Shown: piece after piece, positions 30,001 to 58,460 of the stretch
Layout of the letters: each line of letters starts with the position of its first letter
Numbering within the stretch: the stretch's first letter is position 1
Assembly: GCA_033442325.1 (NCBI GenBank)
Contig: JAWQFM010000020.1
Span: 201,322 to 265,321, forward strand
Direction: 5' to 3'
DNA: 64,000 nucleotides
Origin: Salpingoeca rosetta
Taxonomy: Eukaryota > Protista > Choanoflagellata
Position numbers and translations under genes: made by a program
Notes under the pieces: generated by a model
Databases searched by the model: none
Told to the model about the DNA's origin: nothing
What the model saw: only the letters and a program-made list of their open reading frames with translations

Positions 30001-30767
30001 TCCCTCACACCCGCGCACATGTTCTCTCTCTCTCTCTCGCACTCCATGTCTCATTGTTGCTTACTGGCGTGTGCAAGTCTGTGTTGAGGAGGAGGATGGC
30101 CATGGCCAGGGCGTGGATGGCATCCACACTGTATTCTGTTGGGTTTTGCTCACAGTACCGCTCTGCAAAGCCTGTCGGATAATCATGGAGAGAGGTGCCG
30201 TTAGCTCAGCAACAAGCAAGTAGCACGTTGACGGGTCACTGGCAGTGATGACGCCGATAAAGGTGGTTGCGTGACAACATCAAATTGTGTCACCTCCGCA
30301 TGCACATGCGTGATGATCCTCGCGTAGACGCATGTGGGACACGGACTTACTGTACATGATGCGGTCGATCTCCTGTGCCTCTGCGTTGAGGGCAAAGTGA
30401 GACAGGAAGCGCCTGATCGCCGACACAATGTCCTGTGCCTTGAAATCAAACAGCTGCAGGTAGTACATGCATACCAAGCGTTCATACTTGGACCTGGTGT
30501 TGTGCGTGTGTGAGTGAGTGTGTGAGTGTATGTGCGTGAGAGAGTGAGTGAGTGTGTGAGAGGGTGGCGTGGGAATAGACATGCGTTTGTGGTGCAACAG
30601 GCGCACAACGGAATGAGCACGATCCTTCCTCCACGAACGTACTCGGCTCCGATGACGCGCGCAATTTCGTCCTTGTTGATACCCCTGCCCTCATACATGC
30701 TGTGTGCTGTCTCTCGTGCGCGTCTGCGCTCCTCTGGGCTCACCCCAGCCTCTTGCCGTCGACTCAT
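27033..30767 (-). CDS. PSD: PSD/EFA6-type Arf guanine-nucleotide exchange factor (Sec7 + PH + C-terminal coiled coil)
   Basis: Sec7 motifs: YLQLFDF, AIRRFLSHFALNAEAQEIDRIM (Glu finger), FAERYCEQNP, HALAMAILLLNTDLH, RMRQDQFIYNL, DFPRQLLQDIYNSIKAEQL. PH motifs: RAWRTLHAAICGRYLIFHK, YTKRDHVFEL, MDNWITRINTIAATSSAPPLPAP. PSD-typical tail: RPVLP...EEQV...EYLEFELQR. ATG at 30767. The 3' end is approximate, and further small exons to ~26830 are possible. Confidence 0.85.
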
Positions 30768-44956: not shown

Positions 44957-45110
44957 TCACTTTGCGTAGAATGCCTGGCCGGATAAGAGCACGTTCGGTG
45001 CCATGGCCACAGACACAATCAGCGCAGCCACGTCCCGCGCAGCAAGGCAGTCCGACGCATCCTAACATGTGCATGCGTGTGCAGTGTGTGTGTGTGTACG
45101 TGTGTGTGTA

Positions 45111-45167
<57 letters not shown>

Positions 45168-45276
45168 TATGCGTGAGAGAGGAGCTATGGGGTGCAATCC
45201 CTCCTCCAATGAGTCTGAAAGGCACGTCGTGCCGTGTGTGTGTGTGCGTGTGTGCACTCAAAATGTAGCGGACATG

Positions 45277-45349
<73 letters not shown>

Positions 45350-48300
45350 GTGTGTGTGTGTGTGTGCGTGTGTGTGTGTGTGTGCGTGTGTGTGTGCGTG
45401 CGTGTGTGCGTGCCAGCAGCTTCTCAGCTGCCTGCATGCGAGCACAAACCAAGCCAAAAACTGACCTCATCGGGATACATGGTTGTGCGCATGCTGGTGT
45501 AGGTTCGGCGTGGAACGACGCAGTAAGCGACAACGTTGTGTGGCTTGCCTTCCAACGCCAGTGTCTCGGTCAAGCATGCAATACCGGCCTTGGAGGCTGC
45601 GTAGGCCGACTGGCCCTCCCGTCCACCTTGCGCCGCGCTGTTGACACGAGTCACAGAAAACAAGTAAGCATGGCAAGCAGAGGGCAATGATATGAGTTGA
45701 GTTTAACGTAACGGTTACAGCCATGCTGATCATCTGGGTGGTGGCTGTCTTAGCCTACAGAGCCTATGGCTCATGTGGCTGAAGTGACTCGTGCCAAAAC
45801 AGCAAGCATTCTAGCCCCGAGCAATGTATGTTGCACATGGTCATGCCTGGGGATGAACCACCCCTGTCGAAAGTCCCCAACTTGCATCAACAAGTATTGT
45901 ACCTTGATCCCACGTTGATGATGACACCACCATGGACTTGCTCTTGCATGCCTGCAAGCAAGCAAGGTGTTCGTTTTTGCGTTAGCGACGAGCAACACGG
46001 GACGTGGCACCACAGCAAGCGGTGAACACAACACGCACACGTGCATTTCGACTTGACTGGCACACTAAATGGCCGCACACGTCAGGTTACTGTACACACT
46101 GCACGCACTTGCGAGGGCGCGCCGTGAGGAATAGAAGCAGCCGCTCAGATTGGATGTCATTATGTTCTGCCACGCTTCATCCGTCTTGATAGTGGGGAGC
46201 ACACACCGCAAATCAACACACGCAGCATACATACAATACATACGAATGACTCGTGAGTGTGTGGTGACGTCATTGGATACGCACAGGGAACAAAACGAAA
46301 CGCGCAGCCATAGAGAGACATGCAAACAGCAAGGTGATGACACATGCACACACACACACACACACACACACAACGAGGAAAGATGTGTGACATGACAAGG
46401 CCAGGGGGCCTGTCGCATGGCCAGATACACAGAATGCAAAAAAAAATAAAAAATCACGAGATACATACCGTTTCCGCAATGGAACGAAGCAGGGCCACGC
46501 CGGCACAGTTGACAACAACATCCACGCGCTTGTACTTGGCGAGCACTTGTGCGTAGGCGTCGTCCACATGCTGTGAGTTTCCCACATCTGCGCATATTGC
46601 CATGCAGCCGTACTCCTTTGCCACATGTGCCACCTCTTCCTCTGTCCGCGCAACCACCGCAACCTGCAGCCGTGAAAGGCAACATCAATGCACACACGCG
46701 TGTGAAGGCGTGATGACCACAACAATGTGAGGACAGGTACGGACACTCGCACAAACACACACACATGTGCAGGAGGGAGAAGCAAGTGTATGCGGTTGAG
46801 CTGGAATGGCAGCCGTTCACACAGGACAATGGAGTTGACAATGCTGAAAGGGTGTGCACGAAGAACATAGCAATTGAGGCAAGTTCCTCCCCCTCCCCAC
46901 TTCCTGCAGGCACAGAATCGCGAACCTGCATGCCGCGCTCTCGAAACCCTTTCACCACGTGTCGTCCAATGCCTCGACCTCCGCCAAAGACAATGGCAAC
47001 CTGAAAGACACGGTAACACGTGCCATAGCATACAGCGTGAGATGAACAAGACACAAAGGCAGACTGTTCAAAGCAAGTACATGCTCATGCTGTTGAGAGG
47101 ACGCAGAGCAGGCACCGCGACACACGCACACGCAAACACACACACATATCACATCACAGATACACACAGATAGGCAAACCTGTCGCATCCGTTGGGCAGC
47201 CAGTTGCTCAGCAGCATGCAAGTCCTGCTTGTAGGTGACCTTCCACACGTTTGGCTGGCAGTCAACGAGCTTGGCGCGAACACCAGCGTACTTGAGCACC
47301 AGGTGCAGCACCTCTGTGCCGTGTTCAATATCATGTGCCGAACAGCTTTCATATGCTTTCATAAGCGCCTCCAGCGAGAATGCCTGCATCAGCAAAATTG
47401 TGAGGGCGGGGTGAGAGATGTACCAGTGTGAAGGTAAGCAGAACCATGGACTGCTCGCAAACACCCACACCCACACAGCTACACCCAACCCACCCACACA
47501 CCCACCCACCCACACACACACACAAACTAAATTGGATCCCTGCAAGCACATGTTACCTGTGGCGTTTGGCTTGCGCGATACTGGGATCGGTCGAGCGACT
47601 CTTCAAGGAAGCCATCAGCGTTTGGTTTGATGACTGTCGAGACAAGAGGTAGTACAGATCCAGCTGCACCACGAACAAAACGTAAAAGCAGAGCAAACAT
47701 GAGCAACCCTCCCCTCAAATATTTTCGGCGCCATAGCAGTCATGAACGATCAGGTACTACTGCTGCTTGCAGGCAAGGTGAAGCGCATTGCATCGCCCGC
47801 CCCTGCAATCACTCTATCACTTGCACGCATGCATGTTCATACACACCTGCTTGGTGCTGCGCTGCAGCTGCTGCGACGTTAAGCACTGTCTTTGCATCCA
47901 CAAAGGGCCTTTGTTCAACAGGACAGACGGATGCATGCATGAATGCAACCGAACAGTGGTGAGTGAGTGTGCATGTATGTGTCTGTGTGTGTGCATGTGT
48001 GTGCATGTGTGTGCATGTGTGTGTCTGTGTGTGAGTGTTGCTTTGACTCGTTGTCAGTGGTGTGGGCGTGTACTTGGTTGCCTGCAGGCAAGGCTAGCAT
48101 TGGGTGCTGTGGTGCTTGCTAACTCCAGCAAACAGCATGGCTGCGCCCATACCTGACGGCGTCATGGACAACGACGACGTTTGGGTGTGAGGGCTTCGAG
48201 TGAATAGCGTCGAGGCCGCGTTTGATGGACGCGTGCCTGCTTGCACCACCCTGAACAAACAGCACGCGCTCAGCCTCGTGCTCAAGCCGCCAGTCCCTGA

Positions 48301-49072
48301 GCCAGCCCGCGCTCTTCTCCAGACAGTTTGCGGCGATCGGCACGACCACCCGGCGCACGCCGGGGACAGCAAGCATCGTGGAGATTGTGTAGTACAGCAA
48401 CGGCTTTCCCTGCAGCACCCAGTACTGCATGCGGGCACGCGAAAGGTAAGAACACGGGAGCATCGGGAGCAGTGAGAGGAGCGAGAGCAGTGGGAGCAGT
48501 GGGAGCAGTGAGAGGAGCGAGAGCAATGAGAGCAGTGGGAGCAGCGGGAGCAGTGAGAGCAGTGAGAACCATGAGAGCAGTGAGAGCGGTGAGAGCAGTG
48601 GGAGTAGTGGGAACAACAACACACGACGCGACGGAAAACACGGTGACACTTGCTGCTGCAAAGTGCTGCCATCTCATGATCTCACCTGTTTCGGCGTCAC
48701 CGAGCCTGTGCGAACGCCGATGCCGCCAGCAGGCAACACCACATCGATGACAACGCCTTTCAATGAAGCAGCAGTCGTTGCGGTCTCCTGATGCAGCTGC
48801 TCCTGTGCTTCGCGCACATCCTGCATACTATCATCACCGTTGCCATCATCGTCATCCTCCTCCGCACGAGAGCGAGGATCCTTCCTCTTCTCATCACCAT
48901 CGTTCCCACCATCGTTTCCGGTGCCACCGGCATTCTTCTCTTCCCTCCTCCTCACTGCTTCTGTGCCATTCTCTCCTCCGTCTTCTTGTTGCTTTGCTCG
49001 CTTCCGCGCCAGCCCATCTTCAAGCCCAGCACCACCAGCACCACCGTGGCCATCCGCACCCGTCTTCGTCAT
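44957..49072 (-). CDS. CRPPA: D-ribitol-5-phosphate cytidylyltransferase (CRPPA/ISPD orthologue) fused to a complete C-terminal short-chain dehydrogenase/reductase, ~567 aa
   Basis: 11 GT-AG exons: 48686-49072, 48153-48424, 47847-47908, 47557-47663, 47180-47383, 46926-47000, 46469-46663, 46109-46184, 45903-45951, 45466-45637 and 44957-45061 (1704 nt, 568 codons, phases consistent). IspD motifs: [67 protein letters not shown] motifs: [34 protein letters not shown]. Confidence 0.92.
48457..48612. repeat. Degenerate 9-bp minisatellite (g(a/g)gagcagt) in CRPPA intron 1
   Basis: About 17 tandem gggagcagt/gagagcagt/gagaggagc units. Confidence 0.8.

Positions 49073-49290: not shown

Positions 49291-58460
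<9,170 letters not shown>

Follow-up and report, generated by a model that had tools for sequence, protein, structure and literature searches.

Does the minus-strand gene at positions 49072 to 44957 of this Salpingoeca rosetta contig encode one enzyme with two activities, what does that enzyme make, and how is it related to animal CRPPA (ISPD)? The stretch of DNA analysed, called the window below, is 64,000 nucleotides (nt) long, and all positions refer to it. The gene is one spliced unit in which a cytidylyltransferase of the CRPPA type is joined to a short-chain dehydrogenase/reductase (SDR) with all catalytic motifs. With a probability that we put at roughly 65%, and judging from sequence comparison, its product would reduce ribulose-5-phosphate to ribitol-5-phosphate with NADPH, turn this into cytidine diphosphate (CDP)-ribitol with cytidine triphosphate (CTP), and represent the ancestral form of animal CRPPA. 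The question is of interest because mutations in CRPPA/ISPD cause dystroglycanopathies, and the C-terminal domain of the animal protein can now be read as a likely decayed reductase with intact living relatives. According to PMC4873967 and PMC13576159, disease mutations also lie outside the N-terminal domain, no function has been known for its C-terminal partner, and it was long unclear where mammals get their ribitol-5-phosphate.

The coding sequence (CDS) runs from an ATG at 49072 to a TGA at 44957 in 11 exons. All 10 introns (157-404 nt) are GT-AG, and the spliced CDS of 1704 nt has zero internal stops and encodes 567 amino acids (aa). The first-pass annotation had proposed eleven canonical exons in frame, and this model is borne out by the product, an exact match to database protein P0001 (S. 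rosetta PTSG_07710; search with exon 5). The parts of the gene are as follows.

48686..49072, minus strand: exon 1, aa 1-129; low-complexity N-terminal extension of ~100 aa, then the CTP-binding loop PAGGIGVR and K128; predicted local distance difference test (pLDDT) <50 for residues 1-21 and 27-78
48153..48424, minus strand: exon 2, aa 130-220; cytidylyltransferase core (SRH, HDAVR); Pfam IspD E 7e-10
47847..47908, minus strand: exon 3, aa 220-241; matched by a loose end of the RNA contig
47557..47663, minus strand: exon 4, aa 241-276; PLVSTV and SQTPQ
47180..47383, minus strand: exon 5, aa 277-344; [12 protein letters not shown]; end of the CRPPA-type domain
47001..47179, minus strand: intron 5, 179 nt, GT-AG, phase 0; domain boundary, removed in RNA
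46926..47000, minus strand: exon 6, aa 345-369; SDR glycine motif GGGRGIG with R353
46469..46663, minus strand: exon 7, aa 370-434; VAR375T, D395 and NCAG
46109..46184, minus strand: exon 8, aa 435-460; N446
45903..45951, minus strand: exon 9, aa 460-476; catalytic S475
45466..45637, minus strand: exon 10, aa 476-533; G481-R482, Y488xxxK492 and P518-x-R520-T-x-T-x-M-R526
44957..45061, minus strand: exon 11, aa 534-567 and stop; terminal helix and strand (SGQ.F), common to the animal CRPPA C-domain

The N-terminal extension (49072-48760, minus strand) is acidic, glycine-rich, mostly disordered and far longer than in aligned relatives; M84 could be an alternative start.

Two neighbouring genes might have been merged in annotation, or the protein might be an IspD of the methylerythritol phosphate (MEP) pathway with a passenger SDR; its UniRef name is MEP cytidylyltransferase, and the Pfam match of the N-domain is IspD. 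At the domain junction, which is in phase 0, the exon at 47383-47180 ends with [22 protein letters not shown] and the exon at 47000-46926 starts with [12 protein letters not shown]. The frame of intron 5 that runs into the SDR exon holds one stop followed by 28 Met-free codons, so that the intron offers no separate SDR start. RNA reads or contigs from four runs (X4, X17, X18 and X19) were aligned directly to exons 4-7, with the junctions of exons 1-3 and 8-11 outside this alignment. Run X4 yielded a contig of 1835 nt from which introns 4, 5 and 6 are spliced out, including the domain boundary; because the contig is spliced, we take this run, labelled ‘RNA?’, to be cDNA. Its loose ends fit exons 3 and 8, and by arithmetic the offsets are consistent with the full CDS plus untranslated regions of ~62 and ~69 nt. 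The domain junction is also crossed by one raw read of run X17. Run X18 contributed 23 reads, 0 of them over the domain junction, with 8 and 2 reads in support of the flanking introns, and run X19 had no reads on exons 4-7. Junction-spanning RNA thus speaks for one transcript and not for two genes.

Pfam assigns residues 110-336 of P0001 to IspD (141.8 bits) and residues 344-532 to adh_short (157.8 bits). The AlphaFold model (pLDDT 85) has two well-formed domains behind the disordered N-terminal extension, and its SDR domain matches classical SDRs with Z 33-35.5 and a root-mean-square deviation (rmsd) of 1.4-2.4. The fusion recurs, being found in eight named unicellular holozoans. Intact copies are present in Choanoeca perplexa, Salpingoeca helianthica, Barroeca monosierra (a 358-aa model without the N-terminus), Savillea parva and Bicosta minor, all choanoflagellates, and in the filastereans Capsaspora owczarzaki and Pigoraptor vietnamica. 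Identity to the S. rosetta protein is 50-69% among the named holozoan carriers in the main similarity listing. The Capsaspora ortholog (P0010) is annotated ‘notch1-induced protein’, which masks its identity. In Salpingoeca infusionum, P0004 is a complete 245-aa open reading frame (ORF) and sister to P0001 in the tree; it could reflect SDR loss, a split or a paralog.

The next relatives are prokaryotic fusions with 42-48% identity (Anaerolineae cluster P0013; P0019 from a Clostridia metagenome-assembled genome), then metagenomic rows. Further out lies a large bacterial family of the same architecture, with 5475 matches to a Proteus member, called Bcs1-like below after Bcs1 of Haemophilus influenzae. 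Among 30 proteins looked up by name there was neither a named animal with an intact SDR nor a named non-holozoan eukaryotic fusion. When the genomic context of the near group was sought, 8 of 64 parts of the genome collection gave IspD and Bcs1-like loci only, and a metagenome scan gave 3 loci, each nearest to holozoan-clade proteins. Near-group relatives were found on 0 viral contigs, in 0 phages and in 0/401 genomes of the phylum of G002.

The best PDB match of the cytidylyltransferase domain is human ISPD (4CVH, E 2e-61); for S. pneumoniae TarI the E value is 9.5e-24. With the TIGR00453 model P0001 scores 163.2 bits, below the cut-off of 181.3 that 8/8 outgroup rows exceed. For FastTree, 14 redundant cluster members or partial rows were excluded (15 for the SDR). 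In the resulting tree of 248 rows, a clade of 46 (support 98) unites the holozoan with the animal-type rows; it lies inside a fusion clade of 69, separate from 70 IspD-type and 109 Bcs1-like rows. IQ-TREE was run on sets chosen by hand (43 rows for the transferase, 35 for the SDR); here the wider clade received 100/100, and holozoans with animals 97/93, with one long-branch row within. In approximately unbiased (AU) tests, a grouping of holozoans with animals was not rejected (p 0.17), whereas groupings with Bcs1-like fusions (p 1.7e-5) and with MEP IspD (p 0.0016) were.

The same division is seen in single residues. H193, L247-x-S249, S272, G298-T-E300 and W323 are shared, with few exceptions, by the 15 holozoan and 31 animal-type rows, and the same columns hold Q, D, G/A, T-D-D and I/L/V in Bcs1-like (111) and IspD (70) rows. 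The residues for CTP binding and catalysis (GxGxR, K128, HDxxRP, TPQ and KxT) are present next to these CRPPA-type signatures. The S. rosetta domain therefore groups with animal CRPPA and not with MEP IspD or Bcs1-like fusions; its greater likeness to animal CRPPA than to MEP IspD had already been noticed in the first-pass annotation and is upheld by the 97/93 clade, the match to 4CVH and the rejected IspD grouping. Given the spliced RNA, the recurrence of the fusion, the TIGR00453 score and the AU test, an annotation artefact or an MEP enzyme with a passenger SDR is largely refuted, and we regard it as highly improbable.

The SDR domain carries G350xxxGIG356, N421CAG, N446, S475, Y488xxxK492, R353 and R375, that is, every hallmark that had been claimed for it, and all 14 holozoan rows keep the tetrad N446-S475-Y488-K492. 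One refinement concerns the serine: S475 is the one that aligns with generic SDRs (16/16), and S476 is specific to the family. Established SDR rules would read R353 and R375, together with the lack of an acidic residue after beta-2, as a sign of NADP(H) use. Three arginines, R482, R520 and R526, are conserved in almost every fused SDR: counted in that order, they occur in 14, 14 and 14 of 14 holozoan rows, in 24, 22 and 24 of 24 near rows, and in 106, 109 and 105 of 110 Bcs1-like rows. None of them is a common residue of the unfused SDRs, and 0/16 of these have the three. A phosphate site is suggested by SDR topology, which would put these arginines next to the substrate loop and the catalytic Tyr. 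Bcs1-like fusions do carry the motif P-x-R-T-x-T-x-M-R, to which the first-pass annotation had likened the tail; its residues are kept in the following numbers of 110 rows: P 110, R 109, T 93, T 103, M 90 and R 105. Transferase-fused SDRs group together against the 16 unfused domains (97 in the FastTree set; 93/96 in IQ-TREE). Among them the Bcs1-like SDRs are a clade (100/98) that does not include the holozoan SDRs, which group by themselves (99/94). The domain is thus kin both to the Bcs1-like reductases, by tree and shared arginines, and to the animal C-domain, by profile and fold (see below). For the S. rosetta SDR the ESM Atlas returned generic SDR clusters only, and the structure search turned up no solved Bcs1-like reductase.

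From these residues we infer NADPH as the cofactor (R353, R375) and a phosphorylated keto-sugar as the substrate (R482, R520, R526). In the proposed route, the SDR domain would first reduce ribulose-5-phosphate with NADPH to ribitol-5-phosphate, and the cytidylyltransferase domain would then turn ribitol-5-phosphate and CTP into CDP-ribitol; the reductase activity would have been lost on the animal stem, with the domain kept as a structural part. The identity of the pentitol, the order of the two steps and the loss on the animal stem are likewise what we infer. The same bifunctional logic may, however, serve another chemistry, in which a different CDP-alditol (arabitol, xylitol or glucitol) is made, or a ketose or aldose phosphate is cytidylylated before reduction. 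Campylobacter jejuni HS:5 makes CDP-fructose first, which an NADPH-dependent SDR converts to CDP-glucitol (PMC10918830), and mammalian ISPD accepts ribose-5-phosphate and ribulose-5-phosphate (PMC4924997). The S. rosetta protein also belongs to a subclade apart from Bcs1-like proteins in both domains. Yet CDP-ribitol is the product of both characterised neighbours, CRPPA as regards the N-domain and Bcs1/Rib as regards the architecture, the arginines of the substrate loop are the same as in Bcs1-like reductases, and a cited work, by its title, puts reduction before cytidylyl transfer in Bcs1. Animal CRPPA prefers ribitol-5-phosphate (PMC4873967). We thus consider another chemistry unlikely, though it is the most serious competitor of the CDP-ribitol route. 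Of the self-contained CDP-ribitol pathway proposed in the first-pass annotation, the presence of two complete domains in one transcript stands; ribulose-5-phosphate as the substrate is the less secure part, in a protein outside the Bcs1-like clade.

The link to animals was assessed with profiles of the C-domain from 26 full-length animal-type rows, five shorter rows being excluded. HHalign matched these to the holozoan SDR with 95.5% probability (E 1.6e-8, score 55.6). Scores were 47.9-49.9 with the near fusions, 35.5 with Bcs1-like SDRs and 19.9 (2% probability) with generic SDRs; the reversed control gave 12.9 and block shuffles <=32.7 (n=59). An earlier run on 22 animal rows picked by the tail motif had the same outcome. 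The model of the amphioxus C-domain (pLDDT 87) has its top match in residues 278-451 of 4cvh (Z 16.6, rmsd 2.6, 150 aligned) and its next matches in SDR-type chains (Z 12.6-14.2). Foldseek was concordant, and the ESM Atlas gave no match for this domain. The animal C-domains are ~130-190 aa long. GxxxGxG or PxRT is present in 0/26, and any YxxxK in 3/26, at three different positions. Pfam PF18706 (ISPD_C) had no match in P0001 at E<=1, and the same model also missed 4/5 animal-type proteins scanned. The earlier statements that the animal domain is devoid of catalytic and cofactor motifs and that animal ISPD may have lost its reductase both agree with these data, in which the motifs are gone while the SDR fold and the profile homology to the holozoan SDR are retained. 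The unexplained C-terminal domain of animal CRPPA is thus likely a decayed remnant of the reductase.

Together with the trees, the simplest reading would be an intact fusion in the common ancestor followed by decay in animals. This fits the reported rescue of ISPD-null cells by bacterial TarI alone (PMC4873967) and the reported lack of a ribulose-phosphate reductase in mammalian cells (PMC13576159). Conversely, the intact SDR could have been fused or swapped in later in unicellular holozoans, with an animal C-domain of other origin, and the S. rosetta fusion would then not be the ancestral state. In the transferase tree, animals and unicellular holozoans are indeed sisters, with animals not nested in choanoflagellates, and near bacterial fusions at 45-48% identity (Anaerolineae) indicate that transfer has occurred in the family. 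However, a grouping of all intact fusions together to the exclusion of animals was rejected in the AU test (p 0.0011), the animal C-domain has an SDR fold and has the holozoan SDR as a nearer relative than the Bcs1-like or the generic SDRs, and the holozoan SDRs are a single clade. A late fusion therefore seems improbable to us, and ancestral fusion with later decay is kept as the preferred account. As a separate observation, the SDR of the near-clade fusion P0173 (cluster member P0200, 193-kb contig) appears to have decayed to a pseudo-SDR independently, as a second case: it has internal deletions and keeps neither the glycine motif nor NAG, PxRT or the S...YxxxK segment.

Several points weigh against a CDP-ribitol synthase that is ancestral to CRPPA. 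The raw-read support for the domain junction is a single read; an animal name is attached to 6/31 animal-type rows only, the others being assigned by the tree; and the local profile match of the animal C-domain spans the last 61 columns only. The S. rosetta SDR lies outside the Bcs1-like SDR clade and shares no more than 26% and 31% identity with the two Bcs1-like proteins of E. coli, and the unfused SDRs that serve as a control are few, 16 domains taken from 8 proteins. The Bcs1-like clade itself was defined by E. coli, Proteus and other proxies, without the H. influenzae Bcs1 sequence; the best 120 of the 5475 matches to the Proteus member contain no Haemophilus-named row. The conserved arginines would indicate phosphate, not chain length or stereochemistry, and the function of the members of the intact-SDR subclade is a predicted one. 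Mammalian ISPD also makes CDP-ribose and CDP-ribulose (PMC4924997), which would allow cytidylylation before reduction as well. S. infusionum, finally, has the transferase-only P0004.

With these points in mind, a wider scenario may be drawn. The holozoan ancestor of animals, choanoflagellates and filastereans may have taken up a bacterial-type CDP-ribitol synthase and already built ribitol-phosphate glycans; the animal reductase would then have become a pseudoenzyme, hence the aldose-reductase and kinase routes to ribitol-5-phosphate in mammals. This is tentative, and we would sooner expect parts of it to fail than the whole to hold. The nesting of the holozoan clade among prokaryotic and other rows makes a bacterial source by transfer plausible, though the branches concerned are weak. 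If the scenario is true, the choanoflagellate or Capsaspora enzyme would be a working full-length model of CRPPA that makes CDP-ribitol straight from the pentose phosphate pathway. From the fusion itself one would expect both CDP-ribitol and glycans with ribitol-phosphate in choanoflagellates and in Capsaspora, and cell models might be given more CDP-ribitol by means of this eukaryotic enzyme. The fusion architecture and its chemistry are already known in bacteria, and both Pfam domains are recorded on this protein in databases. The human ISPD structure paper (Riemersma 2015) reportedly describes the human C-domain as Rossmann-like and may already note its SDR likeness. No paper tying unicellular holozoan fusions to CRPPA was found in a search that left most subscription literature outside, and in PMC8478517 the words Salpingoeca, Capsaspora, Monosiga and choanoflagellate do not occur.

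In the rest of the window, Pfam matches were obtained in 3/86 open frames scanned, none tied to glycan synthesis: an FSH1 serine hydrolase (11920-12255, plus strand), Sec7 (30283-30690, minus strand) and TPR exons (51165-51965, plus strand).

Among known systems, H. influenzae Bcs1/Acs1 and E. coli O118/O151 Rib share the architecture, a cytidylyltransferase N-terminal to a classical SDR in one polypeptide. With Bcs1-like SDRs the S. rosetta domain has R482, R520, T521, T523, R526 and S476 in common, as well as the tetrad, the basic residue after beta-2 and G-R. The S. rosetta protein differs from Bcs1/Rib in forming a separate subclade in both domains, each of which is only 26-31% identical to its E. 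coli proxies, and in being encoded by a eukaryotic gene with 10 introns and no operon context. According to PMC10299916, Hib Bcs1 converts ribulose-5-phosphate to CDP-ribitol, consuming NADPH and CTP. According to PMC7685785, the E. coli O118/O151 rib gene makes ribitol-5-phosphate for an O antigen that contains it; in one such cluster, LicD is two genes away from the Bcs1-like fusion. Of the 7 Bcs1-like loci examined, 5 have LicD or a TarF-like gene as a neighbour, and two chlamydial loci have none among the ORFs scanned. These belong to environmental chlamydiae with Bcs1-like fusions (L041 and L061; others are L004, L039 and L042). In a Methanomassiliicoccaceae archaeon (L003:5022-7395), such a fusion comes immediately after LicD and is surrounded by sugar-nucleotide genes.

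C. jejuni HS5.18 and HS5.17 also combine a cytidylyltransferase with an NADPH-dependent SDR to give a CDP-alditol, but they are two proteins, act on a hexose and reduce after cytidylylation (PMC10918830); the likeness considered here is one of chemistry. The prokaryotic ‘bifunctional cytidylyltransferase/SDR’ near group (P0013, P0019) is closer, with 42-48% identity over the whole enzyme and a place in the same 100/100 transferase clade. With animal CRPPA/ISPD (4CVH, D-ribitol-5-phosphate cytidylyltransferase) the S. rosetta protein shares the N-domain clade, the signature residues, the domain order and a homologous C-domain with the same terminal SGQ.F strand. Unlike in animal CRPPA, this C-domain is a full SDR of 225 aa with glycine motif, N-S-Y-K tetrad and arginine pocket.

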